A stretch of 64,000 nucleotides of DNA from Macrostomum lignano (taxonomy: Eukaryota). Below the pieces are notes generated by a model. That model was not told the origin of the DNA. It did no database searches and was given only the letters and a program-made list of their open reading frames with translations. Location of the stretch: the NCBI GenBank assembly GCA_002269645.1, contig NIVC01000554.1:48340-112339 (forward strand). Direction: 5' to 3'. Numbering within the stretch: the first letter of the stretch is position 1; each line of letters begins with the position of its first letter. The translations under genes were made by a program, and so were the position numbers. Shown piece after piece: positions 27,741 to 60,939 of this stretch.

Positions 27741-30700
27741 ATGGAGACGGCATCCAGTGGTGAGCATCGGCCGGAGCCTCTGCTGCGGCAGCTCCGTCAG
27801 AAGGCTCTGATCTCGTTTGCCCAGCAGACCACAGCGCACGGCTTCGTGCGCCTGACGCAGGGCTCCAGCCTCCGCCGCCTCATCTGGGCACTGGCCATCT
27901 TGAGCGCCTGCGTAGGATTCTCGCTGCACCTGTCAGAGCTGGTGAAGAGGTACCTCAGCTACCCAGTGAGCACCGAGTTCTCCAATGATGGGGCAGAGTT
28001 TCAGTTCCCAAGCGTCACCATCTGTCCCATTAACAACTACGTGCTTTGGTGTCAACCTGTGCCTCCGCTCGATCCCAACGGTAAGGATGAAAATATCTTG
28101 CAGAGCAATGCACATACCAGGTATAGCAGCATGTAAATTCTTTACAGGACAATCACAATTCTGTACGATACAATCGCTAATAACATGTAGCATGCACCAT
28201 GCACCTGCATTTACTATATTTTGAATCATGAACCACATTCTATGCAACGCATAGCATGCGCGCTTCTATTACACGTATTGCCATAAGCTCATTATCTTCT
28301 TGCTGAACATTCATTCAATTTGTTTGAAAACTCAGCTTCATCAGATATGTGCTTATGGAACATGATCTATGACGTTCCTCGGACATATCTACTGCTGGAT
28401 AAAGAGAACTGGAATGTCTCAATGCCTTCGCACCCCTACAAATACTATAACGATGGAAAACTTGCTCTTCGAGCTCTGGCTTACCGCGGGATGCAGTTCA
28501 TGCTGCCTCACGAGATGGTTCTCTACTGCCGGTACAACTCCGAGCCCTGCTCTTTCAAGAACTTCACCCTGTACAAGGACGAGGAAAGGTAGGACGCCGC
28601 TTGTGTTCACAAAATCACAAAGGTAGGACAAAGATCAAGAAGACAAAAATCTAGCAACTGAAGCAAATCACCGACTTTATCGAAACTTCAGATTCCAGTG
28701 TATTTCGTTTACTCCATTGAACCATTCAATCGTTCGAGCCGGGCCTGGCAACGGACTTTATCTGGTGCTCAATCAGATAACGGACTCGTTTTTAACCGAC
28801 GAAGAGCAAATTGACTATGTGCCGGGATTTCAGGTGGCCCTGCATGAGAGAGGTGAGCCGATCATGTCCTCATGCTGTAAGCTGTCTATCCTGTTTTTCC
28901 TGCAGTAGGTGATGTTTTCATTAGAGAAACGAGTTCAAAACCCTGTGCAAGGAGACCTCTAGAACCTCTGTGGGCTACGTACGTAAGCATCTAATTATTC
29001 AGTATAGCTACTTTATTGCGTTTGAAATCTGAACACTCCAACTTTCTCACGTACGACGCTAGGTTTGGAGGCTCCAAACCCCTGAATAGTCCTAGGCACG
29101 CTACCCACAAATAAGAAAAGAAGAGGCAAGGCGGCTTATGACGGGCGGCGATGGATGGTGCTCAAAGCAGGTAGGTGGGTGTATGACAAGTAGCTACAGA
29201 CTGGTTGCACGGCTCAGGGCACAGCGCAGAGGCGCAAACAAAACGCAGAGGTGCAAATAAATGTGGGAGCGCAGACGGAACGCAATACGCAGAAAATACA
29301 AAGTCTCAGCTCTCATGTCTCGTGGCCAAGCTCATTCCGACCCTTGCAAAAAATCAGCCCCTTTACGGCCTATCGACCCACGGGGCCGTGGATAGAGTCG
29401 GTGGAAAAAAGGGCTACAGGCCGGCCCTGAATGCTTAAAGTTTCAGCAACAACCAGTCAGCCAATCAGCAGCGCGCGAGCAGAGCAGGAAACTCAGTCCT
29501 GACCAATCAGCACCAGATAAAACTGGGGGGAGGGGTTAACACAATGCCAGCCAGTGATACAAGCTAACCCGATGGGGGAGAGAGGCACCCACCCTGAGGA
29601 ACATCACACTCAAGTTAAAAAAGTTCACTACATTATTAGCATATAGTTACATTACTATTGGGACAGAGGCCATTATTGACAATTAAGACCTGTCGATAAG
29701 TCATATAGCTGGGATGGACACAGGAATAGGTGGTATATCTATGTGGCCAAGTTAAAAAACCCCTTATTTCCCTGCTACTAACTCTTTCAACTACTGAAAG
29801 GTACTTAAAGTATTGTATTAATGAATGAGTAGTCTCATTCTTCCCCTTTTGTCATAAGAATTTCCTTGTCTTCTTTAATGTAAACCACGCATTTAGGCAA
29901 AACTAATGTTAAAAATACTAATACTAAGTTAAAAAACTTACTATAAAAAGCTTTGATTTGTCTGAGTGTTGTGAATGTGCATGCTCAATGCTATTATGTA
30001 ACGTACGCGCATCGATGTACATCTAGCTCATATCAGTCAGATAATATATATTGGCCAGCTCACTGTAGCTGAGAGCCACCTCTCCTCTCCTTCGCCTTTC
30101 GTGAATTGATTTCATTCATTTGGCCAGCGGCCACAACACTAGCATCGCAAGCAGGGACTTAGCGAAAAACCACCACGCGCAAAACTCAACTCACGGCAGC
30201 CAAGGCACACAAGTCAAACTCTCGCTATCGCCTTGCAATTCTGCAAACTCAACTCAGTGAATTTAGAAATGAGCAGCTCCGACAACGCCACAGCGCCAGC
30301 GCTACGACTAAACCTCAGAGAACCGCCTCCATTTCTCGACAACCCAGGAACACCTGTGGTTTCATGGGAAACTTGGGCCGCTGAGTTCGACACCTACCTG
30401 CTAGCGTCAGGAGTCGACGGCTTGCAAGAAGCCAGGAAGATCGCACTGCTCGTGCACTGCCTCGGGCGGGAAGGAGTGCGAGTCTACCGGACTCTTATCA
30501 AGTCTCCAGCTGAAGCTCCAGCGACACTCAAAGCGGCATGCAAACTGCTTAAGGAGCACTTTCAGCCCACCGTCAGCGTGTATGCCAAGCGCCATGACTT
30601 CCGGAAGTGCGTCCAGCGGAGCGGCGAAGGCGTGCACGCATTCGTGGCAAACTTGCGTCATGCCGCCAGAGACTGTGAGTTCCAGAGCCTTCACGACGAC

Positions 30701-33700
30701 CTCATCCTGGACCAGCTGATCTTCGGCACTTCATCAGCGAAGGTGCGCGAACGCCTCCTGCTAGAGCAAGAGCTCACCCTGGACGGAGCAATCCAGATTG
30801 CCGCCCAGGTGGAAAAAGCTATCCAGAGTGAGAAGTCCTTGACCGGCAAGAATGCAGCTGACGACGGCATCAGGAAGATCAACGCCAAGAGAGCTCCGAC
30901 TGGCACCAGAGGCCAGGCAGCGCGACCACCGCAAGAGCCCTGCTGCTCGCACTGCGGTAAGCCGGGCCACCGCACAGGCAGCGACCCGCGCTGCGCTGCC
31001 CGTGGCAAAGCGTGTAAGAAGTGCGGGAAGCTTAACCACTTCGCCAGCGTGTGCAAGAGCAGCACCACGGCACCGCACTCGGCTCAGAAGAAGGTTCAAT
31101 GCGTCGACTTCGACAGCTCCGCTCAGCAAAGCATCTTCGCCGTCAGCACGGACAAGAAGGGCGAGTACAAGAGAGCCAGCGTCAGGATCAACGGGTTCAG
31201 CACTCCGCTGTTGGTGGACACAGCTGCCAAGGTCTCCATCATCAACATGCAGACCTGCAGGAAGATTTTCGGACCCAAGGTCCCCCTGCGACCGTCGGAG
31301 AGACATCTCGTGTCGTACAACGGCTCCAGCATCAGCGTCGCCGGCGAGGTCGACGCCACGGTCGAGTTCGACTGCGTCCAGCTCCCGTCGTTCACCTTCA
31401 CCGTCGTCATGGACGGCGATGACCTGATGGGAATCGACCTGATGGACAAGTTGAACTGCAGAGTTCTCGGGCCTTCCGGACATCAGATTGCTGCGGTCGA
31501 GTCCGAGGAGCCTCCGACCACGTCGATGCCCGAATGGATTCCAGCTAAGTACCACGCCTTGGGCACCGGACTCGGTGAGATCAAAGGGTTCTGCCACCGT
31601 CCCAGAGTTAACCCAACTGTGCCTCCCGTAGCTCAGCGTCTGCGCCGACTGCCTCTAGCGCTGCGCCAGGAGTGCGACAGCGAGATTCAACGCTTGAAGG
31701 AAGAAGGCATCATCGAGCGAGTCGACGGCGACATCCCTGATTGGCAGTCCAACGTCACCTGTGCCCGCAAGGCCGATGGGAAGCTGCGCCTCTGCGTTGA
31801 TCTGCGAAGCGTCAACAAGGCGATCATCCCGGACTCGATGTCACTGCCTACTTTCGCCGATCTGGTGACCGAATTCAACAATTCGAAGTTTTTCTCAAGG
31901 ATCGACCTCAACCAGTCGTATCTACAGCTGCCTCTGCACGATGACGCCAAGAATCTGACCTGCTTCCACACCGAATCCGGCCTCTACCGGTTCAGACAGA
32001 TGCCGTTCGGCATCAGCTCGGCTCCGGCGGCCTTCCAGAAGGTCGTCGGCAAGATCCTCCAAGGCATCAGAGGCGTCGTTCACTACCAAGACGACATCGC
32101 CGTTCACGCCGCTACGGAAGCCGAGCATGAAAGTCGCGTACTTCAGGTACTGGACAAGCTGCTGCAGCATCGAGTAACCGTCAATCTCAAGAAGTGCACC
32201 TTCAAGGCGTCGGAGATCGAGTTCGTCGGACACCGCGTCAGCGCAGCGGGAATTCAACCTCTCCAGTCGCACACCGAGTCCGTATCGAAACTCAAGGCAC
32301 CCACCAATACGGCAGAGTTGGCTTCATTCCTAGGCTTTGCAAAGTTCTTCCAGTTCTACATCAAGAACCTGTCTCACGTCGCCGAGCCGCTGACAGCGCT
32401 CCTGCGCAAGGACGCGCCATGGAACTGGGACGCGAAATGCGAGGCAGCCTTCAGTGAGGTGAAGCGGCTCATCTCATCAGCACCGTGCCTGAAGTTCTTC
32501 GACCAAGATCACGAAACCGTGGTCTCCTGCGACAGCAGCGACGTCGCCCTGGGCGCGACCCTGAGCCAAGTCGACGAGCACGGACAGCTGCGGCCAGTCG
32601 CCTTCGCCTCGCGAGCCCTATCCGACACCGAGCGCCGCTACTCTGCGTCAGAGAAGGAGGCCTTGGCCTGCGTCTGGAGCTGCGAGCAATGGCACCTGCT
32701 GCTGTACGGTCGCAAGTTCAAGCTTCTTACCGACCATCAAGCACTGACGACCCTGCTGTCACCTCGAGGAGTCGGCCAACGACCTCTTCGACTTCAGCGC
32801 TGGTGCGAGCGACTCTTCGTCTACGACTTCGACATCGAGTACGTCCCCGGCAAGCTCAACGTCCAGCCCGACTTTCTGTCTCGCTACGGCTACGACGGCA
32901 AGAGCGCAGCCAACGAGTCCAATGAGCAGCACCAGAGCGAGTCCGACATCAACCTGGTGCTGGCCAGAAGCGCCGAGCCGATCTCAGTCACTCAACTGGC
33001 CGACGCAACCAAGAGCGACAACCAACTGCAGCGAGTCATCGGGTTTCTCATCAACGGATGGCCAGCCGAGGTTCCAGCCGACCTGAAGGGCTTCCACCAG
33101 GTGCAACACGAGCTCTACCTGTGGAACGATGGTTGCTGCCTGGCGAGAGGCAGCCGAGCCGTCATCCCGACTGACCTCCGCGACCTTGTGCTGGCAGAGG
33201 CGCATCAAGGACATCTCGGCGTCGCCAAGGTCAAGGCGCGGTGCCGCGATATGGTCTGGTGGCCGCGCATCGACAGCGACGTGGAGGCCTTCGTGCGGAA
33301 CTGCAGTGCCTGCGTCCTGTCCGAGAAAGCGTTCAAGCCGATCAAGGTCCCATGGTCAACGACGGAGCTACCAGCGGGTCCATGGCAACAGCTGCAAGTC
33401 GATATCGTTGGAGAGCTGCCGGAAGCCAATGTGCCGCAGTCCCATCGATTCTTCATCGTCGTCCACGATCTCTACTCCAAGTGGCCTGAGATCATCGCAT
33501 CTTCATCCGTGACTTCCGCTGCGTGTATCGAAGCCCTTCGCAGCCTGTTCGTCCGCTGGGGGCTTCCAGACGAAATTACCACGGACAACGGACCTCAGTT
33601 TGTGTCAACCGAGTTCACGGACTTCCTCAGCTCGCTCGGCATCAAGCACCGTCGCACTCCGTTCTACTGTCCACAGCAGAAAGGCGGAGTCGAGAGATTC

Positions 33701-36427
33701 AACGGCTTCATCAAGACGTCACTGCGCGCACTACTCGCCGACGGTGTGCCAGTGAAGCACGCGGTTCAGGAGCTGCTGCTCGCGTATCGATCATCTGAGC
33801 ACGCGCTGACCAAGAAGTCGCCGGCTGAACTGATGCTGGGACGGAAGCTCCGCCTGCCTCTCGATCGTCTTCAACCAGCAAGCACCGAGTCAACGACGGA
33901 CCAGGAGCTGCGGCGCAGCGTCACGGAGCGACAGCAGCGGGCCAAGAGCCGCCGCCGGATGCGCAAGCGGAACCAGCCGCTGAAGGACGCAGCGTTGACT
34001 GTCGGGAGCCGCGTCCGCGTCCGCCGGCCGAGGCGCGGAAAGCTCAGCAGCGGCGTCTCCGAGCCACAGACAGTCGTCAGTCGCGAGGGCAACACCATCA
34101 CTCTGACCGATGGCAGCCGCTGGCACATCAGCCGCTGCATCCTTGATGACCACCACGGCTGGGGTGACGGGGCCGACGACACAGAGGCTCTGCAACAGCC
34201 GGACGGCGGGAGACCAGAGGCGGCGCCACCGCCAACGCCACCGCTGCGCCGCTCTGAGAGACTTCGTGCACCGCCTCAATGGTTCGGCAACGTTGTGACT
34301 CACGATTGACTGACTTGACTAACTGACTGCTCATGCACCGAAAACTGTTCCATTGACATTGCTTGCTTTAATGCGTCTGCTTATCCCACCCGTAATCTGT
34401 CACCTCTTTGCACGGGGAGATATGTTGTGAATGTGCATGCTCAATGCTATTATGTAACGTACGCGCATCGATGTACATCTAGCTCATATCAGTCAGATAA
34501 TATATATTGGCCAGCTCACTGTAGCTGAGAGCCACCTCTCCTCTCCTTCGCCTTACGTGAATTGATTTCATTCATTTGGCCAGCGGCCACAACACTGAGA
34601 ATTGAATGTAGTTAAACAAGTGAGGTAGCTTGGCAGCCTTCGTATTTATAAAAACGGTGGGAGCTAGGGTTAAATAAGACTGGGCTTGAGCACTATAGTC
34701 TGCATGGTGTACGAGTAAAGCGAAGTTGATGAGCAAAGTACATTTGAAGTAATAAATAAAACCTTTCTCACATGCCTACTTCTCGCAGGCTTCAAGCCAG
34801 ACATGTCTCTGGGCTTCAGAGCTCCGTTCATGCGCAAGACGCAAGCCCAGGTGTTCGGAGAGACGGTCTCGAAGGTCGATCGTGACGCCACGCCATGCAG
34901 CAACGACCTGCCGAATGTCACCTACACAATGAACTACTCGTATCCGGGTAGCTTTGAGGATCAGAGCTTTTTTAGCACCTACCAGGACTGCGTGATAAGA
35001 CGGATGCAAATGGATTATAAAAGCACCTGCGGTTGTCTGGGCACGCACCTGCCATTGCCCAGCGACCTGCTTAACGACACGGATGTGTGCCATCGACTGC
35101 CAGAGGAGGTGAGAGCATCGAACACGGGTGCTAATTGCTTTACCTTGGCGACCCGAATCTTAAGAGACTCGTTAACCGATCCTCTCTTACATTTCAGATG
35201 CTGATCAATTATAATATAAACTACCGAACTAACAAAAACAACTTCACAGAGTACATAATAAAGAACAAAACTCATAGTTATTACCCACTGACGGATTACC
35301 TACAGGCCAACTGGGAAACACTTGACTTCAATCTCAGCAGAAGCTTATTCAGGTGCTACCACCGAGTGCTGCGCCGTCACAAGACGCAGGGAGTCTCTGA
35401 CAAGCACTGCCCAGTGCGCTGCACCAATACTCGCTACAGGGTCTACAGCACCATCACCTCCTGGCCAATGGACGTAAATCTTGCGTCGGAAATTGTCCGC
35501 GGCTACGTAAAAGACAACCTGGATCAGATTAGCGGCACAGATCTATTTAGAGACCGGCTACAATACATGTACGACAACCCAAATTTCACATTTAACGAAG
35601 TGCAAAGCCTGAGCGTGCTGGACCTGTACCCGATGTCTGTCAAGACGAGCGTCTTCACCGAATCGTTTGCCTATCCTCTGCGGAATTTGTTCTCGGATCT
35701 GGGCGGAATTCTCGGTGAGAGACTGTTTATTGCATGGAAACTCAAGACGTTTCAGCCAGTAGCTACTTGTACAAAAAGATGTGGCCGCTATACTAACCGT
35801 TTTGGTGTAGCTATAGGAGCCTGCAGGCACAGAGTAGACCATTGCAGTCACAGTAAATTGCATGTATTCTATAACTTCAAAGGCAGGAACTCATCATTTT
35901 CTTCATTGATATTCTTTTAGACAGTGAGTCTGGAATGGTGCTGACTAAGTCACTAAGATTTTAATAATAATAAGGATGAAATGAAAAATTTCTGAGCGCT
36001 GAGGAGACTACCTCGATTGAGTATTGCCTGAGTAGCTCGTACCTCACTCAACAAAGCAACTTACATACAGCTTTCGCATTCGCTTCATTTTACAGGCCTA
36101 TGGGTTGGAGTGTCCATTGTGACCTTAATGGAATTTTTGGAGCTTTTAGTTCAACTGGCCCAGCTGATCACCAAGGGACTAGTTTCAGCATCAAAGAAAT
36201 CAGGAAGTGCCCAGGATCAAGCTGAACAAAGTACCCAGAGAAGATCGCGACAAAGCATCTACACGGTCGAGATGGCTATGTACGACTCCAAACTGTTTGC
36301 TGAATCGTCTGAGAAGGCGTTAAGTTTCGCGCCACCATCAAATCTGTCGCCAATAGTGACTGAAGCCGACTTTGGCAAAGACTACGTGAAGCACAAGTCA
36401 TCAATACTGGAAAAGTTCTCGGTCTGA
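27741..36427 (+). CDS. DEG/ENaC channel subunit, paralog B. Exons 27741-28080, 28336-28588, 28692-28852, 34789-35108, 35198-35714, 36096-36427; 640 aa
   Basis: Exons 1-5 have the same lengths as in paralog A (340, 253, 161, 320, 517 nt) and the same motifs; total 1923 nt in frame; intron 3 is enlarged by a Gypsy insertion. Confidence 0.92.
29967..34594 (+). mobile_element. Full-length Ty3/Gypsy LTR retrotransposon (Mag-like), apparently intact and recent
   Basis: 172-bp LTRs (29967-30138 and 34423-34594; TGTTGTG...CACAACA, one mismatch seen); 5-bp TSD CTGAG; PPT GGGGAGA; single gag-pol ORF. Confidence 0.97.
30269..34309 (+). CDS. Gag-Pol polyprotein (Gag with Zn knuckles, protease, RT, RNase H, integrase)
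   Basis: CSHCGKPGH and CKKCGKLNHFASVC; LVDTAAKVS protease; YQDD RT; DSSDVALGA/EKEALA/TDHQAL RNase H; HQGHLG...C..C and DIVG/TDNG/ERFN integrase. First ATG at 30269 (ORF open from 30233). Confidence 0.95.
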   Translation: MSSSDNATAPALRLNLREPPPFLDNPGTPVVSWETWAAEFDTYLLASGVDGLQEARKIALLVHCLGREGVRVYRTLIKSPAEAPATLKAACKLLKEHFQPTVSVYAKRHDFRKCVQRSGEGVHAFVANLRHAARDCEFQSLHDDLILDQLIFGTSSAKVRERLLLEQELTLDGAIQIAAQVEKAIQSEKSLTGKNAADDGIRKINAKRAPTGTRGQAARPPQEPCCSHCGKPGHRTGSDPRCAARGKACKKCGKLNHFASVCKSSTTAPHSAQKKVQCVDFDSSAQQSIFAVSTDKKGEYKRASVRINGFSTPLLVDTAAKVSIINMQTCRKIFGPKVPLRPSERHLVSYNGSSISVAGEVDATVEFDCVQLPSFTFTVVMDGDDLMGIDLMDKLNCRVLGPSGHQIAAVESEEPPTTSMPEWIPAKYHALGTGLGEIKGFCHRPRVNPTVPPVAQRLRRLPLALRQECDSEIQRLKEEGIIERVDGDIPDWQSNVTCARKADGKLRLCVDLRSVNKAIIPDSMSLPTFADLVTEFNNSKFFSRIDLNQSYLQLPLHDDAKNLTCFHTESGLYRFRQMPFGISSAPAAFQKVVGKILQGIRGVVHYQDDIAVHAATEAEHESRVLQVLDKLLQHRVTVNLKKCTFKASEIEFVGHRVSAAGIQPLQSHTESVSKLKAPTNTAELASFLGFAKFFQFYIKNLSHVAEPLTALLRKDAPWNWDAKCEAAFSEVKRLISSAPCLKFFDQDHETVVSCDSSDVALGATLSQVDEHGQLRPVAFASRALSDTERRYSASEKEALACVWSCEQWHLLLYGRKFKLLTDHQALTTLLSPRGVGQRPLRLQRWCERLFVYDFDIEYVPGKLNVQPDFLSRYGYDGKSAANESNEQHQSESDINLVLARSAEPISVTQLADATKSDNQLQRVIGFLINGWPAEVPADLKGFHQVQHELYLWNDGCCLARGSRAVIPTDLRDLVLAEAHQGHLGVAKVKARCRDMVWWPRIDSDVEAFVRNCSACVLSEKAFKPIKVPWSTTELPAGPWQQLQVDIVGELPEANVPQSHRFFIVVHDLYSKWPEIIASSSVTSAACIEALRSLFVRWGLPDEITTDNGPQFVSTEFTDFLSSLGIKHRRTPFYCPQQKGGVERFNGFIKTSLRALLADGVPVKHAVQELLLAYRSSEHALTKKSPAELMLGRKLRLPLDRLQPASTESTTDQELRRSVTERQQRAKSRRRMRKRNQPLKDAALTVGSRVRVRRPRRGKLSSGVSEPQTVVSREGNTITLTDGSRWHISRCILDDHHGWGDGADDTEALQQPDGGRPEAAPPPTPPLRRSERLRAPPQWFGNVVTHD

Positions 36428-40707: not shown

Positions 40708-41628
40708 AATATTCCTTTTTGTGGCCTATAGTTGGTACTTCAAGCTTTTAATTTAATCATAGATACAGAAACCAGGCTTGCAAGACAGAAAGGTTTCTGT
40801 CTATGGTTGACACTCATTGGCATAGCAGAGTTCAATTTAATCCTGGGGGCATCAATTTGATCATTCTATGCATTCAATGCAAATTTTTACTGTTAGCAAA
40901 ACAAACTTGTTTTTACATCATATGATCTTCGGACAGACTATAATGGCAGTCAGGTTCCAGATGTTCATCTAAGATTTGGTGCAAAGTGTGATGAGTTATG
41001 GTGATGTACTTGATGGCAAAAAGTCTGTGTGATCATGGATAATGTCCATTTTCATCATGGAGTGACAATCCCAGATCAATTTCAGCCTGCTTGGTGCCTG
41101 GTGACATTGACTCCATACTTGCCATTCTTCAATCCTGTGGAAAACGTCTGAAGTGCCTGAAGGCAGCCATAAAATGCCAGCTGGCTCAACCACAACTGCA
41201 AGAAGAGCTAGACACTCTACCTAATGGTCATTTGCTATAAGAGTGGCAAATCCTTGTCCTACAGAGGAGTGCAGAGGACATAACCCGTGAAGTGACCATT
41301 GCAAAATGCGAGGCTGGTACCAGCAGATGCTGAGATTTATTTCAGCTTGACTTGACAACATCCAATGCTAAAGCTTTTATTTGTTTATTGTATTGTTCTG
41401 TTTTAGATTTTCTCAATGATAAGTAAATGACTTGTGTTATAGCACTGGATATCTAACATTATATGATTAGAATGATCAAATTGATACCCCCAGGATTAAA
41501 TTGAAATCCGCTATGCCAACGAATGTTGACCATAGACAGAAAATTTTTAGTCTTGCAAGCCTGATTTCTGTATCTATGATTAAATTGAAAGCTTGCAGTA
41601 CCAATTACGCTACAAAAAGGAATAATGT
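40708..41628 (+). mobile_element. Decayed non-autonomous Tc1/IS630-family DNA transposon
   Basis: ~160-bp imperfect inverted repeats (40708-40868 / 41467-41628). Internal frame VIMDNVHFH...TPYLPFFNPVENV* is the D..(33 aa)..E catalytic segment, with stops and a frameshift. Confidence 0.8.
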
Positions 41629-42639
41629 TCCCAAATGTTCTCTTTTTTAATCAAGACTAGGGCCTATGCCTATTTTTTATATTTTAATAACCAATGACAA
41701 TGTCTCAATCATTAGGCCACATTATTTTATAATAGGTCTAGATAATAGAGAATAGAGTAATTAGTTATCTAGTTAAAAATGTAGTAATTCATTAAAATAT
41801 ATTGTTTGGAAGATGGTTACCCTTACAATTTATTGTTTTCTTAATGTATTTTTAATTTTAATTAATTATATTAAAGTGTATATATTATAATAGATTATCA
41901 TTGTCATATAATCAAAATTCATTGTTAAATTTATAATATCTGCTAATTAATTTATGATAAACAAACTGTGCAGGGCCCCTCCCGATTTCTTTATAAAATA
42001 GTCACCATTTAGTCAATTTGAATTTATGCCAAAACTAAGAAACATATTTTGTTTTAATACTCGTATTTTCTATAATATTTTGCACTAACGAATTTTTGTT
42101 TAAAACTGTAGCAAATTTTAGTATAAATAGAAGCGTTTTTGGCAGAGGAGAGAGCAACCTCGCGCATCGCGGTTCGCAATAAGCAATTGATAGCAAATAG
42201 AAGAGTTCCGAGAAAATAAGAATTGAAGAAGTGTTTTCCGTGTTAATTCTTTTTTTAAGAAAGAGTGAAGTAGACGGAAGTGTGTACCGTATATACTACT
42301 GAGAAGGAAAGTGTTGAGTAGTAAGAAGTTGCGAAGTAGATCTGAAGTAATACGTGTAAGAATAAACGGAGGCTGTGACCCTCTGATCTCGGTAACGCCC
42401 AAGGACTTGCAAAGTACATGAAATACATATACCAGTAAGCCAAAATACCGCTCAGGCCATTATTAAGTAGAACGCTATCAGAATAATAGAACGCTACCAG
42501 AATAATCAGAAGAGTACATCTTTCAGGGCTAACAGTTTTCTAAGAATAATACTCAGACTAAATACTCAGACTAAATACTCAGACCTATTCTAAGAAACAT
42601 TTCTCGGATTATTCTAAGATTGATAAACTCACAATTTAT

Positions 42640-43005
42640 TAATAGGATAATCCTGGTGGCAGCTACCAACCTAAGAAGAACACTTAAGAGATTAGTAAAT
42701 TAGCCCTGTGATAGCTTTGGTGGCAGCTAGTAAGGCTAAACAAAGGATTAATTAAGAGCCCTACGACAGCTTTTGGTGACAGTGTGAAATTATTATTAAG
42801 AAGAAAGAATCACCCCTAGTACAACTTTGGTGACATAACGGTGAAATTCTTATAGAGAGCCAAAAGGCCTACGACAACTTGGTATCAGCGGTGAGATTAA
42901 AATTGATAAAGTAGGAGGTGAAACATCTACGACAACTTAGTGACAGCGGTGAAATCATTTGTAGGGACAGAAGTTACCCCTACGACAACTTGGTGGCAGC
43001 GTAAA
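42640..43005 (+). repeat. Array of seven (LTR-end + PBS) repeats with unique spacers at the U5 end; units 1-6 are copied in the 3' LTR (~47393-47740)
   Basis: Consensus CCCTACGACA-ACT-TGGTG(G/A)CAGCGGTGA; PBS-like starts at 42654, 42718, 42774, 42828, 42880, 42938 and 42991. Confidence 0.85.
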
Positions 43006-43180
43006 GGATCAGAGAAACGGCCAGAATCGAACAGATCAGAGAAACGGCCAGAATCGAACAGATCAGAGAAACGGCCAGAATCGAACAGATCAGAGAAACG
43101 GCCAGAATTTCAGAACTAGACAGATCAGAGAAACGGCCAGAACTTCAGGACTAGACAGATCAGAGAAACGGCAAAGAACT
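43006..43180. repeat. 27/35-bp leader tandem repeat GATCAGAGAAACGGCCAGAATCGAACA
   Basis: Six GATCAGAGAAACGG units between the PBS and gag. Confidence 0.9.
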
Positions 43181-43247
43181 CCGGTAATTGAAGATCATCA
43201 GTGAGAAATTTTAGAATTAGGAACAGTAGTTAGAATCAAGAAGAAAG

Positions 43248-43838
43248 ATGGCTAATGCCAATGATGCAATCGCTAGGCTAGCTGAAGAGCTGTCAAAGAA
43301 GCTAGGATTAGGAACGGAGAAGCAAGTAGAGATTGAGAAGTACACACCTGACAAAAATATCAGGCAGTGGATCAATGCATTCGAGCAGCAATGCAGGATG
43401 CAAGGATTGAATGGAGAAAAACGGAAAGTAGCTCTTTTCGCCAATCTAGACATCCCAGAAGAACTGAAACGGAGGATGAGCCATAAACAAGATCAGCAGC
43501 ACTATCAAGACATTAGGCGACAAGTTATTGAGCAGTTCGAAAGGAAGCAGCAGAAGCAGGAGGAGAATGGAGTCCAAGCCCTAGTCGAGTGCTTGATGAC
43601 CCTGACGGTCATATTGACAAATCTGAACTTAGAACAGAAATCAGAGCAGCAGCAGCAGTACAAGTACCAGACGGCGCCAAAATCGCGCCCGCCGCACAGA
43701 TTTAGTGGCGCCAGACCAGAGCCAAGCCCTGGTCATTGCTTCTTCTGTGGGAAGCCAGGACCAATCAGGCCACAAGCAGGTCACAGATGCAGAGTGAATC
43801 TGGGAGAAGCCAGACAGCGAGCTCAGGAGAAAGGATGA
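43248..43838 (+). CDS. Short Gag-like protein, 196 aa, with a degenerate Zn knuckle
   Basis: Located after the PBS; retrotransposon-gag-like '..IRQWINAFE..' segment; CFFCGKPG(P)...HRC knuckle lacking the canonical His position. Confidence 0.75.
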   Translation: MANANDAIARLAEELSKKLGLGTEKQVEIEKYTPDKNIRQWINAFEQQCRMQGLNGEKRKVALFANLDIPEELKRRMSHKQDQQHYQDIRRQVIEQFERKQQKQEENGVQALVECLMTLTVILTNLNLEQKSEQQQQYKYQTAPKSRPPHRFSGARPEPSPGHCFFCGKPGPIRPQAGHRCRVNLGEARQRAQEKG

Positions 43839-45269
43839 GAGTAATTTTCTACTAGCACGAATCAATTAAGCTAAGAAAATTGTACATAATATATTCATAA
43901 AAATATAAAAATTTATAAAAAGCTTCGAAAAGAAAATAAAAATGACCGTACAGAGTATATAATGCACATAATTACCTAATGGAGCCCCAAAAGGGCCGTT
44001 TTAGCAAAAGACCGCTTATGTAAATCGCTAGCTCATTAAAATGTTTGACATGCATGATTATTATAGTACTGTATTATGTAAATACGTCACTGTTGCACAA
44101 ATTTGCTTGAAGTAAAATAGCTCAGAAAGGTTTCCCTAACAAAATACGGTATAGAAGCCTCAGAAGGGCCGTTTTACCGAAGTTTTCGAATAGACTCTTA
44201 GCATATTTGAAATGACTAGAATTAACATTATGTAACTGTGTAAATATTCACTATGTAAATAGCACACTAAACTACGCAAAATTAAGTCTCCAGAAGAGCC
44301 TTAAAGAATTAGGTGACCCCGAAAAGGGCCGTTTTGACAAAGAAAATTCAGAAAATCAACAAAAACAGGTTTAATTCGGTTAGTTAGGCTGCTCAGAAAG
44401 TAAGATAGGAAGTCTACAATAAGCGTCGGAGTAGTGAGAAGCTCTGTGAAGAAGAAATAATTAAAGAATTAATGTAATAAACTCTGACAATAGGCAGTAG
44501 AGAGAAGCGAATACAGGACGCTGAGAAGTTGAATTGAAGAAGAAGACGAGGAATTTGAAAAGAGAAGCACGAGAATTTGAGAGGAATCGAGAATTAGAGA
44601 AGAAAAGGTGTGCTAAAAGCAAGAGGTAGACTAAAGACTTTTTGTCGCCATCGAGTGACGTAGTCTAGCCGCACCCTCAAGCGCTAATAGACACCAAGTA
44701 GAAGAGAATCAAGAGTAGTCGAGAAGCGAATTTGAAGAAGTGAATTCAAGAGAAGAATTCGAAGAAAAATCAAGAAGAAGTACATAAGCAAAGTCAAAGA
44801 AGTGAACCAGAAGAATTGAGAGTTTGATAAAGTGAGGAGAAAAATTGTGAGAAAAAGCCAAGAAAAATCCGATCAGCTATCTCATGGTGTCCCTCTTTAG
44901 ATCAGATATCATTGCTGTCTAAATGGATGCGATAGTCTGTGAAGAACAAAAATAAGAGAGAATTCGAGAGATGAGAAAAGTGAAGAGTTTGTCAGAGAAA
45001 ATCTAAAAATAGAAAGAACGGAAATTTCTTGATCCCGCTTAGAAAGGCATGGTGTAACCATTTTAAGACCTCTCTCAAGGATCCTGAAAATCGGAAAGAC
45101 ATTTGAAAAATGGAATACTGGAAGGAGTGCTCACTGTTCTTTTGGAGAAAGCAAGGTAGTCCACTGACAGCCAATTTTAGCCCATTCCTGAGAACATAGC
45201 ATTTTCGGAAAGTAGAGGCTTGAAACCAAACTAATCCAATAATTACATAACTAACTAACTAAAGCATGA

Positions 45270-45480
45270 AGAAGAATTTGAGCAAGAAGATGAGTCAACA
45301 GATAGTGAGAAAACTGAGCCAGCCGAAACAGATGACGCATTAGAATTAGATAGGAGAGAAAGAAATGAAGACGAAAGGATTGAGCATAGGCCGCATTATA
45401 ATTTGAGACCAAGAAATGAGAGAGTTGTCACCTCAGGATTCGCCCCCCGCAGGCGATACGCCCATTATCTGAAATAATCA
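45270..45480 (+). pseudogene. Remnant of the pol/integrase C-terminal tail
   Basis: Frame reads EEEFEQEDESTDSEK...HRPHYNLRPRNER...YLK*: an acidic tail plus YNLRPR, typical of Gypsy pol ends; upstream is disrupted. Confidence 0.55.
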
Positions 45481-45849
45481 AAATTGTATCATGCCAAGTA
45501 TTAAATTGTAAATAGGTTTGCTTAAAAATCAAAATGCTCTATGAAGAAAATCTGTTGTAAAATAACATTGACAAAATATAAAAAGTTTAAAAATTTAAAA
45601 ACACAAAAACATTGCGCATTACTAGTAGTAGAAATGCAGAGAATTGTGTGAAGAAATCTAAAGTCTATAAAAATCCTAGCAACGCTTAGCAACCGTGTGC
45701 AGTTATGAGCCAATAAGAGACAACCAAGCGAACACTAGAGAGAGCCATTACATTTGACGACCACGTAACCCCATTAGCCCCCTCGAAAAGCGAGAGTTTG
45801 CCCCCAAGCGAACACCACGATAGACGTCAGTCATCAGTGGCAGGCAGCA

Positions 45850-46335
45850 CTTGTCCAGCACCATTGGCTGCCGCCGCGGCTCGCCTAACATCATCGGCTG
45901 CCGCCGCGGCTCGTTCAGCATCATCGGCTGCCGCCGCGGCTCGTTCAGCATCATCGGCTGCCGCCGCGGCTTGTTCAGCATCATCGGCTGCCGCCGCGGC
46001 TCGTTCAGTGTCATCGGCTGCCGCCGCAGCTTATTCAGCATCATTGGCTACCGCCGCGGCTTGTCCAGCATCATCGGCTGCCGCCGCGGCTCGCCCAACA
46101 TTGTCGGCTGCTGTTTGTCCAGCATCATCGGCTGCCGCCGCGGCTCGTTCAGCATCATCGGCTGCCGCCGCAGCTTGTTCAGCATCATCGGCTGCTGCCG
46201 CGGCTCGTTCAGTGTCATCGGCTGCCGCCGCGGCTTATTCAGCATCATTGGCTACCGCCGCGGCTTGTCCAGCATCATCGGCTGCCGTCGCGGCTCGCCC
46301 AACATTGTCGGCTGCTGTTTGTCCAGCGTCATCGG
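45850..46335. repeat. 30-bp GC-rich tandem repeat CATCATCGGCTGCCGCCGCGGCTCGTTCAG inside the LTR element
   Basis: Degenerate copies, with an apparent ~180-bp higher-order duplication. Confidence 0.9.
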
Positions 46336-48549
46336 CTGTTGCCACGGCCCGACCAGCTTCATCGAAGGCAGTGATCCCGCGTAATATCCACAGTGAGTTG
46401 CCTCACCCATGCAACTTGTTAACTCAATGTTCATTGTTTGCCTATTATTTGTTATCTTTCACATCCTGTATAATTTGTACTTATACTGTGGAACAGTACT
46501 TATACTGTGGAACAGTTTCTTTTTGCTTTGTTCATATAATCCTTGCTACAAACTTTGCTTGCATTACACCCTTCCGTTTTTTATTATTTTTGTTGCCTAA
46601 AAACTATACATATGCTGTTATGTCTCATTGCTTTGATTGAAAATTTTTCTCACTCAAAATGCTTTAAGTAGTACTTGTAACATTTTTTTATTCGAAAAAT
46701 TTTTTTAGGGGAGGCAGGTTGTGCAGGGCCCCTCCCGATTTCTTTATAAAATAGTCACCATTTAGTCAATTTGAATTTATGCCAAAACTAAGAAACATAT
46801 TTTGTTTTAATACTCGTATTTTCTATAATATTTTGCACTAACGAATTTTTGTTTAAAACTGTAGCAAATTTTAGTATAAATAGAAGCGTTTTTGGCAGAG
46901 GAGAGAGCAACCTCGCGCATCGCGGTTCGCAATAAGCAATTGATAGCAAATAGAAGAGTTCCGAGAAAATAAGAATTGAAGAAGTGTTTTCCGTGTTAAT
47001 TCTTTTTTTAAGAAAGAGTGAAGTAGACGGAAGTGTGTACCGTATATACTACTGAGAAGGAAAGTGTTGAGTAGTAAGAAGTTGCGAAGTAGATCTGAAG
47101 TAATACGTGTAAGAATAAACGGAGGCTGTGACCCTCTGATCTCGGTAACGCCCAAGGACTTGCAAAGTACATGAAATACATATACCAGTAAGCCAAAATA
47201 CCGCTCAGGCCATTATTAAGTAGAACGCTATCAGAATAATAGAACGCTACCAGAATAATCAGAAGAGTACATCTTTCAGGGCTAACAGTTTTCTAAGAAT
47301 AATACTCAGACTAAATACTCAGACTAAATACTCAGACCTATTCTAAGAAACATTTCTCGGATTATTCTAAGATTGATAAACTCACAATTTATTAATAGGA
47401 TAATCCTGGTGGCAGCTACCAACCTAAGAAGAACACTTAAGAGATTAGTAAATTAGCCCTGTGATAGCTTTGGTGGCAGCTAGTAAGGCTAAACAAAGGA
47501 TTAATTAAGAGCCCTACGACAGCTTTTGGTGACAGTGTGAAATTATTATTAAGAAGAAAGAATCACCCCTAGTACAACTTTGGTGACATAACGGTGAAAT
47601 TCTTATAGAGAGCCAAAAGGCCTACGACAACTTGGTATCAGCGGTGAGATTAAAATTGATAAAGTAGGAGGTGAAACATCTACGACAACTTAGTGACAGC
47701 GGTGAAATCATTTGTAGGGACAGAAGTTACCCCTACGACAAAACAAAACAAAATTAGACAAGTATAAAGCTTTTGCTATTTGTTGGCAGTTTGACCATAG
47801 ACAATAATACTTTTTATTTGTTTCCATTAAGACTTGTTTACTTGTTAACATTTTGGCCATAGACTATTGTAGCTTTTCAGTGTCAAATACATTATAACAA
47901 GTTTTGGAACATAGTATTAGTGCCTGATTAAGCTCAAGTCTCTTAAAAATAATTATGTGTACTTAAAATAGTTTATAAAGTATTTTTCTAGACTCAAAAT
48001 AATTTAACAAATGGAACCTAACAATTGCCTAAAATTATATATATAAATGATATCTCATTATTAGGCCTAATAAAAATAATAACTTTTTACATGACTTAGA
48101 ATTTAGATATCTCATTATGAAAAATAAGCTTTACAATATATGTAATTAAATTTATTTTTAATTCCATTTGCTTGCTGATCATCCCAGATAATAAAGCAAG
48201 GCAATAAACAGACAAAATGACTTATTCTTTTTGATTTTTGAAAAATTATTTTTTTAAATCTTTAAAATTAAGCTAGATAAAAGGTGCATGACCAAGATGG
48301 CCATAACTATAAATGTCTAAATAGATAATTATAAGCCTAGGTCAATATATTTAATTTATTTTTTTGGTAGTAATTTGTATTAGGTGTAGATTGAAAAGTC
48401 TTAGAGATAGGCCCCTATCTCTATATTATTAAATATTATTATATAATAGAATTATATAATATTATAAACATTCCCTTTGGCTTAAGCTTTTATTGTAGCT
48501 TTATCTATAGATATTTATCCAATAAATAAAGCAAGTAGCCTAGGCCCTA

Positions 48550-49490: not shown

Positions 49491-50204
49491 CACCAACCAT
49501 CGTTGTTGCATATTGATTATATTTTTACATAGGCCTAGCATTACCATTAGCAATGATTTCTTGATTAACTGATAATGATAATAGATTTAATAGATGTATG
49601 TAATGATAGGAAATAAATGGGCACTAGGGCCTAACCCATAAGTTTTTGTATTATGGTAAATTAGTTTTAAATCTATATTTTATTGTTGTATTAATATTTA
49701 TGAATAGGCCTATGCTATGATTGATTAAATTATTAATATGATTAATATATTAATTACCATTAAGTTGTAAATGAATAGTAGGGCCTAGTCCCTACTAGTA
49801 TAGTGAGAGTAAATATAATAATAGAGCCGAGGTTCAATGTTGCAGCCATCTTGGTCTTAGGCCTACACCAGATAAAATACTTGATTTTCTAATTCTTCTG
49901 AAACGCTTGCTACAAACTTAGGATGTGCCCAAAAAAAGCTAAAAACTGCTGAATTAGGCCGGCGCAGGTCCTAGGCCTACTTAGTTTTGTGTTTTAGTTT
50001 AGTGATGTGTGATGATGCCATGCAATACAATTGCAGCATAAATGTATGTTACACAGATCAATGGTGAGAAAACAGCCTGTCATTGTGGGAAATTTTGTGT
50101 ATCTAAGATCAATATTGATACTACAAGTTCAAGTTTTTCGGAATATCTAGATTCTAGAAAGATGTTGCAAGGCCCGCTCGATCGATGGGTCTCGATCGCT
50201 TCGT

Positions 50205-52679
50205 ATGTGAGGGTTTCCCGACAGATATTCAGACAGATATTCAAAACGATCATCTACTACTTTTAACAAAATGGACCAAACGGAACCATATTTTTGGCAG
50301 ATGTTTACGCATGTGTTTGCAATCAAATGAGCCCAAATTTGTTTTATAATATAAAAAACTTTACGAAGTGCATTGTTTCAAAGATTGCTTGGCAACACCC
50401 TGATTCAGCATCTCTTCAACGTTTTCTGAAAATGATTCAATTTTTACATCCCATAAATGTGCCCCGTATCCCAAAAAGACAATGGACTAACTCTTACGCA
50501 TGTTTCAGCTGTAAAATGCCGCATCACGCGTCTAATAAAATACTTTACTTCTTGAATTATTTTCTTTTAAAGTGTGCTTGGAGATTTGCTTTTTTGAAGG
50601 CAAGTCATGAAACAGCGCATATTTGCTGATGTCAGAACTCCATTTCGCTCTCAAATTAAATGAATTTATAGTTCCATTCTTACGCATATCCCAGCTTTAG
50701 AATGACACCATTGAAGCTGAAAAAGAAACAGTATTTCCTGAGATATTCGACTCTAAAGTGTGCTTTGCTTTTGAGTCAATAACGCTTGACGTTGTATGTC
50801 GAAATATACGCCAAGAAATTGTGACACCATTTTTTGCTTACGAAACATAAAACTTAACTCGCTCTTTTACGCACGTCCCAGCTTTAAAATGACACCTCAG
50901 GCGTCGCCAAAGACGCCACCGTTCGTGAGATATTCGACTCGAAACATTGCTCGGCGTGTACAGACATTCACCTTATAAATCAAATGTATTCCCAATCTTT
51001 GTGCACGTGCGGTGCTCCACCTGTGCTTTTCAGTCAATTCCGATGAAATTTAACTCGCTCTTTTACGCACGTCCCAGCTTTAAAATGACACCTCAGGCGT
51101 CGCCAAAGACGCCACTGTTCGTGAGATATTCGACTCGAAACATTGCTCGGCGTGTACAGACATTCACCTTGAGAAGTCAATTGCAGTCAATCTTGGCGAA
51201 ACTTTAATGAAGATATTTGATTCGAAACATTGCTCGCCGTTTAGTTCGAGCCATTATAAACTTTTGACCGAAACAGTAAATTCCATTTTTTCGATTTTTT
51301 GAATGGAGGCGAATCACCTGAATGATTGATAATTTTCGACAGTAAATATAATAATATTATTACATAACATTATAACATATTAATAATACGAGCGACAGTG
51401 TTACATCATTATTCACTGACTTCCGCTTAAATTTTGGCATACCTGCAATTAAAAGGGCTTTTAATAAATGATGCAGTTATCAGATTGCCAGCGGAAACAA
51501 GTTTTAGATGTCAATCTGGGAGCACGTTTTACAGACGGCGCTAGCAGCACTTCGGTCCCAACAGATTTTGTGGTGCCAGAAGAGGCAGGATGGACACTCA
51601 ATCTAAAGGACGAAAACAATTGTGATATGTATATTTTATTTTATATTATGTATTATTTTTCTTGCAGTCTCAAGCTTACGTTGGGTGCAGTTAACGATTA
51701 TTGTACATTTGTCAAGAAGCAAACTGCGACCGAATAGGCAGGTGAAAACACCGCATGAGTAGGCGTCCTTCTGTTGAGTGCACATTCGATTAGCCAGGTT
51801 AAAGTGCTTATAGCGAAGGTGTTCAAGATTAGGATGTGGCAGTGGACTCTCAAGTTCGGTGCCAGTCAGAAGTGCGCTATGGTACACAAGTAGTAAAAGA
51901 AACTTTAGCAATCTACTGTGAATATACTGTGCAAATTCAACAAAAATCAACTCAAATATCTCACGAACGGTGGCGTCTTTGGCGACGCCTGAGGTGTCAT
52001 TTTAAAGCTGGGACGTGCGTAAAAGAGCGAGTTAAGTTTTATGTTTCGTAAGCAAAAAATGGTGTCACAATTTCTTGGCGTATATTTCGACATACAACGT
52101 CAAGCGTTATTGACTCAAAAGCAAAGCACACTTTAGAGTCGAATATCTCAGGAAATACTGTTTCTTTTTCAGCTTCAATGGTGTCATTCTAAAGCTGGGA
52201 TGTGCGTAAGAATGGAACTATAAATTCATGTAATTTGAGAGCGAAATGGAGTTCTGACATCAGCAAATATGCGCTGTTTCATGACTTGCCTTCAAAAAAG
52301 CAAATCTCCAAACACTTTAAAAGAAAATAATTCAAGAAGTAAAGTATTTTATTAGACGCGTGATGCGGCATTTTACAGCTGAAACATGCGTAAGAGTTAG
52401 TCCACTGTCTTTTTGGGATACGGGGCACATTTATGGGATGTAAAAATTGAATCATTTTCAGAAAACGTTGAAGAGATGCTGAATCAGGGTGTTGCCAAGC
52501 AATCTTTGAAACAATGCACTTCGTAAAGTTTTTTATATTATAAAACAAATTTGGGCTCATTTGATTGCAAACACATGCGTAAACATCTGCCAAAAATATG
52601 GTTCCGTTTGGTCCATTTTGTTAAAAGTAGATGATCGTTTTGAATATCTGTCTGAATATCTGTCGGGAAACCCTCACAT
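50205..52679. mobile_element. Non-autonomous Mutator/foldback-like DNA transposon with long TIRs and a Ulp1 protease fragment
   Basis: TIRs 50205-~50937 and ~51955-52679 are nearly identical; perfect 9-bp TSD TCGCTTCGT (50196-50204 and 52680-52688); modular internal subrepeats; minus-strand QQKDAYSCGVF motif. Confidence 0.88.
51636..51950 (-). pseudogene. Ulp1/SENP-like C48 peptidase C-terminal fragment
   Basis: QQKDAYSCGVFTCLF matches the family QQxxxxxCGVF catalytic-Cys motif; the His/Asp region was not seen and the frame abuts the right TIR. Confidence 0.55.
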
Positions 52680-53547
52680 TCGCTTCGTCTCCTCGTGAAT
52701 CGTGGCTTTTAATTTCCGAATTTTAAACTTTTATCCATTTCTTCTTTCTTTTTTGGTATTTTAAACTAATAGTTATAACAAACAGTTTGACTCAAAAAAC
52801 GTTTAGAGAATTTATTTTACATTTTATAACGTTCTTTCGCTTTAAATAACAACAGCTAACCGAAAAGTGGTGATCTGGTAGTTTCCTATAATTTTCACAA
52901 TGTACAGGTGCAAATAAAAGGACTTTCATTAAAAATTGGACTTGGATAATGTATATGCGACGCAGGGCTGACTTCATGCAGTATTTTTACTTAGGTCAAA
53001 TGCTTCAAAGTGCTTCACTGGTTTCCTTGGGCTGACAGCTCTCGATCACGTCTATCAAAAGTCAGATGGCAAATGACGTGTGCAGGTAAAATGCATGTAT
53101 GAGTACCTGTATGAGTTCGGTGCAGAGCTTCCCGTTAAATAAAACAAAGATGGTGCTGATTAAGTTAGACTTCGTCTGCTAAATTGCTCAGAATTAGCTT
53201 GCAATAACTGAGGCTAAGCGGTTTTAAGTTAACCAAAACATGCACTCTACAAGGCTGCAGAATCGGTTTTCTTGTTGATGGATCTACTTTGCTAATGTAT
53301 TCGATATTCTCGCACCGAATTTGCTAAGTTGAGGTATTTCGACCTCAAAGTCCCCTTGATATTATTATGAGTAGACCCGTATGTTACGCATGCATACAAA
53401 AAGCGACTGATGTAGCATAAATATATACTATACGCAGTATTGCATGCATATGTAAGTATATCCTTGTGCAGACACTAATAAGACATAAGAGTACAGACTA
53501 TAAACAGGGGCCAATCGACGCCAACGACGCCATATAGCGCTTGCGGC

Positions 53548-60052: not shown

Positions 60053-60355
60053 GGTTGTAGCCCAGTGGTCAGAGCGTCGGACTCACGACTGAGAGGTATT
60101 GGGTTCGATTCCCAGCCCACTGAAACAATTTGTCTCCTTGAGCAAGACACTTAACTCTGCGTTGCTTCAGTTCACCAGCTGTAAAATGGGTGCCCAGCAT
60201 TAGCTGGGGTAATTGAGGGTGTGTGTGTGACGACCCCCCCCCCCAGTCTGTGGACTGAACAGCCGTACGCAGCCTTCAGTTGCACGCGCAATAGCTGCGG
60301 CTGAGCTGTCGGTTGCGCATCTTACCATTGGGGCAGGGTGAATTCAGTTATTATA
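60053..60355 (+). mobile_element. tRNA-derived CORE-SINE, copy 1
   Basis: tRNA-like head (A box TAGCCCAGTGG, B box GGTTCGATTCC, CAC in the loop), then the CORE-like CCTTGAGCAAGACACTTAACTC...CAGCTGTAAAATGGG, ending in a TTA-rich tail. Confidence 0.8.
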
Positions 60356-60939
60356 TAATACGCTCGTAATTGTAAATAAAGTTAAAATAAAAAGATAACA
60401 CTAAAAGCAATGTTGAAAATTTTATGAAAAAAACTTCATTGGAGTAAACAATTCTCATGAGAAAGAACAGTTTTCGAACAATTCCAAATACGAGCGTATA
60501 TATTAAAATACAACAGAAAACTTCCGACGTTAACTTGAAAAAAAATTTGACCGCCCGTGCAGAAAACACTCAGAATATCCGATATTATTTACTAACAGTA
60601 GCAACAGTAGTTTTATTCTTTAAAAAAGGCAGGATAATCAAACGAGTTTTAATATGATGCATTTTTTTAACTAATCACAAGTTTCTCAAAATCAAAATTA
60701 AAGCCAAATGTAGTGTATAATCTACTTTTGTAAGAAGTAGCATAAATTCTTGTAAACGATTGGAATACAAAATATTTTTGTTACAAAAAATTGTAAAGTA
60801 CATTCAGTTCTAGATTCTCGAATGAAATCAAGTTGTGAGAATTGAACAGCTAACAGGTCTTTGAGGCTGTCAGTGCATTTTATAAGTACACAATACAGTT
60901 CCAAAACATATTCTCAAGATACTTGAGTACACAAGCTGC

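Follow-up and report, generated by a model that had tools for sequence, protein, structure and literature searches.

Modular LTR ends in Ty3/Gypsy elements of Macrostomum lignano: arrays of primer-binding-site cassettes shared between families

INTRODUCTION

The usual U5 of an LTR element has one att, the LTR end, and one primer-binding site (PBS). In a 64,000-nucleotide stretch of Macrostomum lignano DNA (the window), the junction between the two recurs as a series of seven units, six of them inside an LTR. How does an LTR come to hold so many copies of its own end, and does their order record the element's past? A preliminary interpretation made from the letters alone (the sequence-only reading) proposed that U5 had grown stepwise as priming moved to successive downstream sites, each move fixing the old PBS with a piece of leader, or as junctions were captured from other elements, the LTR thus becoming a chronological log of former priming sites. 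Here we compare these proposals with the relatives of the element across the genome.

RESULTS

A young element with six units inside its LTR

The array is part of the 5' LTR of a 5.8-kb Ty3/Gypsy element (41967-47740), young and of the short-gag kind, which has a TG..CA LTR pair with a target duplication, a Leu-type PBS behind the 5' LTR and a polypurine tract (Table 1). The LTR has a single AATAAA, 5' of the array, which probably places the array in U5. The window copy keeps a mere remnant of pol, and full Pol is found in other members of the family: a relative from the same LTR family (L041) has a 1495-aa pol frame whose nearest database protein is 85% identical and comes from a record under the name Macrostomum lignano, in keeping with a flatworm and not a vertebrate host, and homologues of this Pol carry reverse transcriptase, RNase H and integrase domains (PF00078, PF17917 and PF00665). 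The 202-aa gag-like frame of the window copy gave nothing above cut-off in a Pfam search and has 150 matches in the genome, including frames of 330-350 aa in longer elements. Many copies devoid of pol retain an open short-gag frame of about 200 aa (window 43230-43838; L051-L080; 64-100% identity), and this conservation suggests selection on a truncated Gag in parasitic partners. Directly 3' of the PBS (window 43007-43180) there are 27- and 35-bp tandem repeats whose number varies among copies, and the 3' part of the element holds a 30-bp GC-rich tandem array (45850-46364) that is open in several frames; a similar repeat region in L041 has a 367-aa antisense open frame.

Table 1. Features of the array-bearing element (positions in the window)
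Feature	Position	Strand	Remarks
5' LTR, TG..CA	41967..42987	+	1021 bp; 100% identity to 46720-47740
Target duplication, 4 bp	41963-41966 / 47741-47744		in A-rich run
TATA-like motif, putative promoter	42122..42128	+	
AATAAA, putative polyadenylation signal	42361..42366	+	sole AATAAA of LTR
Unit 1	42654..42717	+	no upstream att; PBS match of 10 nt, then spacer, decayed att and linker
Cassette type m03	42718..42773	+	PBS variant, spacer, att and linker
Cassette type m01	42774..42827	+	
Cassette type m02	42828..42879	+	tandem twin in L008; LTR end in L016/L029 and L011
Cassette type m07	42880..42937	+	after m02 here; before m02 in L007, L008 and L016
Cassette type m05	42938..42987	+	its att is the working LTR end of the window element
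3-nt linker and terminal PBS, tRNA-Leu AAG/UAG	42988..43009	+	imperfect allele specific to the family, exact over the first 11 nt
Short gag-like open frame, 202 aa	43230..43838	+	zinc-knuckle-like motif near its end
Remnant of pol 3' end region	45268..45788	+	88% match to longer relative
Polypurine tract	46707..46719	+	
3' LTR	46720..47740	+	same six units, about 47407-47740

The junction motif occurs six times in a 411-bp region, against at most two (mean 0.004) in 5000 shuffles, and is absent from the rest of the 64-kb window. The seven PBS-like sites start at the first base of unit 1 and of each cassette in Table 1 and at 42991, with a spacing of 52-64 bp; the last is the real PBS and the sole one outside the LTR, and the other six are common to both LTRs, so that the positions and the LTR identity confirm the layout described by the sequence-only reading. 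Its view of the units as real LTR-end/PBS junctions is supported, except for unit 1, which lacks an upstream att and has just a 10-nt match to the PBS. The array was not called as a tandem repeat by TRF. Contigs of four public runs (three guessed to be RNA and one unlabelled) cover it and contain unit-skipping and go-back joints, although such contigs cannot show transcription, strand or ends.

Other repeats are present in the window. A second, unrelated Gypsy element at about 29967-34596 has a 1388-aa gag-pol frame (30143-34309) and 174-bp repeats that are 99% identical, and no Leu-type PBS array was seen in it. At 50202-52682 a 1-kb core is flanked by long inverted repeats, 98-99% identical and split into three pieces (about 750 bp), which resemble a young DNA transposon or foldback element, and further inverted-repeat pairs at 40729-41607, 12198-12745 and 60053-63170 are probably non-autonomous DNA transposons.

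Families share cassettes but differ in their number and order

Relatives of the element were gathered by DNA search and gag search of the genome. According to our parser, at least one inner unit is present in 99 of the 104 elements with a terminal PBS (range 0-6; element counts are not fully de-duplicated for assembly duplicates), and Pol identity within the array-bearing group is 60-96%. The same insertions with the same flanks are found on different contigs (L009/L010, L012/L013, L019/L020, L101/L102/L225 and others), showing that the assembly holds duplicated regions.

The units resolve into about 40 types of a cassette of roughly 55 bases that consists of a PBS variant, a spacer of about 20-50 nt, an att end and a linker. 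A first set of 379 units gave about 35 spacer types and an enlarged set gave 42, or 59 at a finer threshold, with six loci of a distant family (see below) excluded from the type, order and joint analyses of the enlarged set; statistics quoted for 34 types exclude the indel derivatives m13, m30 and m31. Each type has its own PBS variant, and types recur across families, in short-gag as well as long (autonomous) elements, with the same cassette near-identical between families yet differently placed, and this sharing agrees with the earlier idea of junctions taken from helper elements. For example, m03 of the window is found at other positions in L023, L026, L061, L083 and L085, and the L008 array equals the L016 array followed by the last two cassettes of the L007 array. 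As many as 27 of 37 types were found as the last unit of an array.

The order of the cassettes is not that of a log. Both orders were seen for 14 of the 29 type pairs observed repeatedly in the first set and for 19 of 42 in the larger one (11 of 40 at finer clustering), and these conflicts contradict a chronological reading of the array. The statement that the 5'-most units are the most degenerate fared better: in the window, where 12-16 of the 18 PBS positions are matched, it applies clearly to unit 1 alone, but genome-wide the units are more decayed the farther they lie from the 3' end (60 arrays, rho 0.46), the first unit being worse than the last in 41 of 60. Substitutions over the 34 types are most commonly G>A (68 of 107), as had been noticed in the window, and 93 of 107 are G>A or G>T. 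Conservation of the inner PBS is better at its two ends (0.96 and 0.86) than in its middle (0.70).

As for the spacers, those of the window do look unrelated (one of 15 pairs with z>2), as described before, but genome-wide this does not hold: 25 of 561 pairs among the 34 types have z>3, where about two are expected, and one homology network, with mosaics in it, joins 19 of the 34 types. None of the six spacers of the window resembles the leader (6/6 z<1.5). Judged from their sequences, the spacers are ancient homologues and mosaics, and the six of the window are no captured leader pieces. The ordinary minisatellite pattern, with neighbours most alike and a fixed order, was not found among the cassettes; the possibility raised earlier that the spacers are decayed copies of a tandem duplication is right as to old duplications but not as to a single ordinary local one. 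We saw no conservation of RNA fold within cassettes (2 of 34 with z<-2, mean z 0.02) and, among 60 inner and 25 terminal joints, no conserved hairpin either (0 and 1 cases, respectively).

Two kinds of test bear on where the cassettes are joined. By conditional entropy, a measure inflated here by family structure, linkers are tied to the cassette upstream of them (0.36 versus 1.12 in shuffled data) and PBS variants to the spacer downstream (0.99 versus 1.80 in shuffled data). In leave-one-out comparisons the PBS variant follows the downstream spacer 16:0, with 29 of 45 cases following neither neighbour, the linker follows the upstream cassette, but weakly, 12:4 (p=0.08) or 10:4 (p=0.18), and att is split 6:3, or 17:6 at the finer threshold, its triplet tracking both sides. 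By these tests, the majority of the informative joints fall on or close to the linker/PBS boundary, with some inside att.

tRNA-Leu and the alleles of its binding site

The matching tRNA-Leu 3' end occurs 12 times in the genome, and all ten of the loci examined are tRNA-Leu AAG or UAG, which upholds the primer proposed from the letters alone, the real PBS of the window being imperfect after base 11. A perfect 18-mer was found at 27 of 104 terminal sites; the other 77 (after removing three rows shown to be internal) carry family-specific alleles, almost all keeping the first 11 nt. Each family, that of the window (42991-43009) included, has its own imperfect terminal allele, and such alleles make up about 74% of sites versus the 50% of unbiased repair, which suggests repair bias or selection.

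Inner sites fall into two groups: those damaged within the first 11 nt, as in all 34 type representatives, and perfect ones, which amount, in our reading, to 7-8 independent events. Perfect alleles are also present on spacers that elsewhere carry variants (four types with both alleles; five at the finer threshold), and the perfect and the genomic (family) allele are both present in 7 leader types, most of those seen, as in inheritance of the retroviral type. Across the genome, 98 junctions combine an imperfect allele with 11 intact bases, of which three are inner and 95 terminal, most of the latter being read directly and a few classed as terminal only by a position 50-150 bp before a gag match. 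The three inner ones (L271-L273, two sharing a flank) are one-base variants of m03 and no terminal alleles, and none of the 95 imperfect terminal alleles was found as an internal site. By hand calculation, the chance of seeing no imperfect allele in seven events is 0.26^7, or about 1e-4, a figure weakened by the fact that imperfect alleles share less distal homology and are therefore disfavoured by copy-choice too. Given that imperfect terminal alleles are never internal, the best explanation of a perfect inner PBS is that the tRNA was newly copied, and not that a partner's terminal PBS was; a caveat is that copy-choice, too, would find more homology in perfect alleles.

Exact complements to other tRNAs, as on a multi-tRNA platform, were not found for the two that we tested, Leu-CAG and Leu-UAA: none of 102 inner variants lies within one edit of either end. 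Thirteen of the 102 are nearer to another of the tested tRNA-Leu ends, mainly in type m08. The PBS variant of m08 (L104, L106 and L111) is three edits from the tRNA-Leu CAG end versus six from AAG/UAG, and in two variants the first 11 nt are exact to the CAG end, so m08 may record priming by another isoacceptor. One tRNA-Leu gene (L326) has a CAG-type 3' end and the anticodon AAG as determined by ARAGORN.

Elements with unequal ends

For the comparison of 5' and 3' ends, 109 elements were reduced to 83 usable pairs with 78 distinct flanks, after dropping two without a terminal PBS call, 15 without a 3' LTR inside the stretch examined and nine that were tandem or cut by a stretch edge (L024, L202, L203, L205, L209, L214, L217, L227 and L234). 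Five usable pairs are discordant (L081, L166, L171, L086 and L065). In three of them, L081, L166 and L171, the LTRs are 99.7-99.9% identical and the target duplications are clean 4-bp ones, and the 3' LTR stops exactly before a perfect inner tRNA-Leu complement, with the extra cassettes at the 5' end only; since L166 and L171 were found by a targeted search, 3/78 is not a rate. Seven complete elements have a perfect inner PBS, and three end there while four do not. The two remaining cases are of other kinds: L086, which lacks a clean target duplication, is longer by two cassettes at its 5' end, and in L065 the 3' LTR has the longer array, a cassette having been lost by a crossover inside att. 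The spacer of L166 is chimeric.

Donor-like LTRs, together with products that have the same array in both LTRs, are present in the genome for two of the three asymmetric elements, the products being L060 and L163 for L081 and L099 for L171. The short LTR of L081 has three solo copies at no less than 99.5% identity, and its relatives at 94-97% are short or have another cassette, so the extension is derived; comparisons of this type agree with the earlier proposal that U5 grows stepwise, and place the growth at its 3' end. For L171 there is an abundant short LTR type and an acceptor-like copy (L268), which has the acceptor's cassette pair with a variant PBS and different upstream sequence. Asymmetric elements may also arise by re-priming at an inner site that is already perfect, and thus do not prove the birth step by themselves. 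Donors, asymmetric intermediates and fixed products coexist in the genome, so that its copies naturally document co-packaging and the landing points of the second jump. Whole elements also occur in head-to-tail tandems with shared LTRs (L047-L048 on C1833, with four LTRs in a row; L205; L214-L215; L217).

A distant, GC-richer, Leu-primed LTR family with Pol at about 48% (L282-L286, L291-L310, L161, L162, L168, L172, L175 and L177) has a perfect PBS that lies within the LTR, some 45-60 nt from its end; it was present in all 20 ends sampled and is occasionally doubled. Its terminal PBS has a 2-nt insertion, and variable tails of 12-16 nt precede the terminal CA. Perfect inner sites are thus not always purged and need not capture priming.

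DISCUSSION

Origin of the array

We consider it probable, at roughly 65%, that out-of-register plus-strand transfer appends cassettes of a partner element and that template switches delete or duplicate them. The starting point is a set of cassettes that different families have in common, though not in the same number or order, and many types of which serve as an integrated LTR end. Two different RNAs, A and B, would be packaged together; DNA primed on RNA A would jump to RNA B, which would then be copied through its unprimed U5. The plus-strand strong-stop DNA of A, ending in an 18-nt copy of the tRNA, would anneal to an inner PBS-like site of B in place of the terminal PBS of B. The product, of a form present among the integrated copies, has the short LTR of A at its 3' end and the LTR of A plus the last cassettes of B at its 5' end, and its joint carries either the variant of B or a perfect tRNA copy. 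Priming at the last PBS in the next round would put the longer LTR at both ends, a state that is likewise found, and priming at the perfect inner site would instead reverse the extension. Ordinary template switches in the shared att would also delete and duplicate cassettes. Selection would keep att whenever a cassette is terminal and tRNA templating would keep the PBS, with spacers left to drift; the scheme needs no benefit to the element. All of the evidence for the mechanism comes from integrated copies, from which we infer the steps inside the particle. According to one source, retroviruses inherit the tRNA copy on one strand, 50:50, and Ty1 and Ty3 inherit the PBS strictly, which counts against the scheme (PMC7472051). 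Aberrant, misplaced second transfers are documented in HIV-1 (PMC12657518).

Several other accounts have to be weighed against plus-strand transfer. If the cassettes were reshuffled by ordinary copy-choice switching, or by unequal recombination after integration, between blocks of att and PBS, the plus-strand jump would be nothing special, and such events fit the four of 16 informative cases in which the linker goes with the downstream cassette, the att triplet tracking both sides, the crossover loss in L065, the chimeric spacer of L166 and the mosaic spacer types. We regard this as unlikely, however, because it does not readily produce perfect inner PBSs without any terminal-type imperfect allele (0/95), or short 3' LTRs that end exactly at a perfect inner PBS between clean target duplications. 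The movement of priming to successive downstream sites put forward by the sequence-only reading would explain polarised decay (rho 0.46) and growth at the 3' end, and may fit the very first duplication and perhaps the one-cassette state of the distant family. As an ongoing process it is largely refuted, and altogether improbable as a general account, since 19 of 42 pairs occur in both orders, the spacers of the window do not resemble the leader, no terminal allele was found at an inner site and an att comes with every cassette. Still harder to credit is an assembly artefact or a simple decayed minisatellite: the assembly does contain duplicated loci (83 pairs reduce to 78 distinct flanks) and the window is rich in tandem repeats, but the array is found in both LTRs of most elements, with target duplications, TRF makes no call and contigs of four public runs span it, and we consider this account refuted.

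A different question is whether the array is selected for a function, such as binding of tRNA-Leu or its 3' fragments (as a decoy, in packaging or as a dimer aid), landing pads for the second jump, or alternative integrase ends for different helper families. This we hold to be a tentative possibility, somewhat less remote than copy-choice. Units are carried by 99 of 104 elements across Pol identities of 60-96%, the ends of the inner PBS are better kept than its middle, the distant family retains its perfect inner PBS in 20 of 20 sampled ends, and 74% of terminal sites keep an imperfect allele, a situation met also in mouse ERVs, in which mismatched PBSs are common and an escape from tRNA fragments (tRFs) has been proposed (PMC7472051). 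Against it, copy number ranges from 0 to 6 and order is free, no RNA fold is conserved (2/34 with z<-2), and 93 of 107 changes are of the kind that A/T-rich drift would give. As to origin, the functional reading is compatible with the plus-strand transfer scheme. On a bolder version, which we think rather doubtful, selection would maintain a self-renewing set of some 40 modules, each a primer site with an integrase end, that autonomous and parasitic families exchange through the obligatory second jump; an element could thereby switch to another LTR end, and with it another usable integrase, or sequester tRNA-Leu fragments, its real PBS being kept mismatched on purpose.

Whatever the function, LTR ends are usually treated as fixed and provided with one PBS, and here the end is a variable position in a traded modular array. 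Such elements can be misinterpreted by software that takes the first PBS-like match as marking the LTR end, or that estimates insertion age from nothing but LTR identity. Two questions become testable in an animal Gypsy clade: whether the PBS receives a copy of the tRNA, which has been denied for Ty3, and why mismatched PBS alleles persist against correction by that copy.

Comparison with known systems

CRISPR arrays have a conserved repeat and variable spacers, and grow at one end while the other decays. The likeness is an analogy only, as the spacers here are homologous (19/34 in one network), recycled within the clade and reordered, with 19 of 42 pairs inconsistent in order, rather than taken from outside, and we found neither foreign DNA nor a dedicated acquisition machinery for the cassettes. 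Tandem TRIM and LTR-internal-LTR arrays are products of strand-transfer errors in which the unit is a whole element; in the present case the unit is a junction of about 55 bp inside the LTR, and whole-element tandems are present as well (L023-L025).

Among retroviruses, HIV-1 MAL also has a duplicated piece of PBS near the primer site, but there it is a single insert of 23 nt that follows the PBS, lies outside the LTR and involves neither att nor shuffling (PMC3185550). Misplaced or deferred second jumps in HIV-1 lead to defective proviruses (PMC12657518), whereas the products here appear viable, heritable and cumulative. A canid ERV likewise has an 8-bp LTR-end repeat inside matched target duplications, in a single case without PBS or spacer (PMC6407205). 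The mouse ETn, MusD and IAP elements share a common mismatched terminal PBS with scattered reversion to perfect, and differ in having one PBS and no array; and unlike the strict PBS inheritance given there for Ty3, perfect and family alleles co-occur here in most leader types (PMC7472051).

A literature search, with most subscription journals and the repeat databases outside its coverage, returned no description of such an array, and the accessible sections of a recent paper on Macrostomum lignano LTR elements do not contain 'PBS', 'primer binding' or 'tRNA' (PMC12801592). Like other Ty3/Gypsy elements (Metaviridae), these have LTRs bounded by TG..CA, a polypurine tract, a target duplication of 4 bp and a PBS that follows the LTR after a few nt, and they differ from the usual ones by up to six extra att and PBS cassettes, exchanged between families. 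This is ordinary Gypsy machinery with an undescribed modular LTR end.
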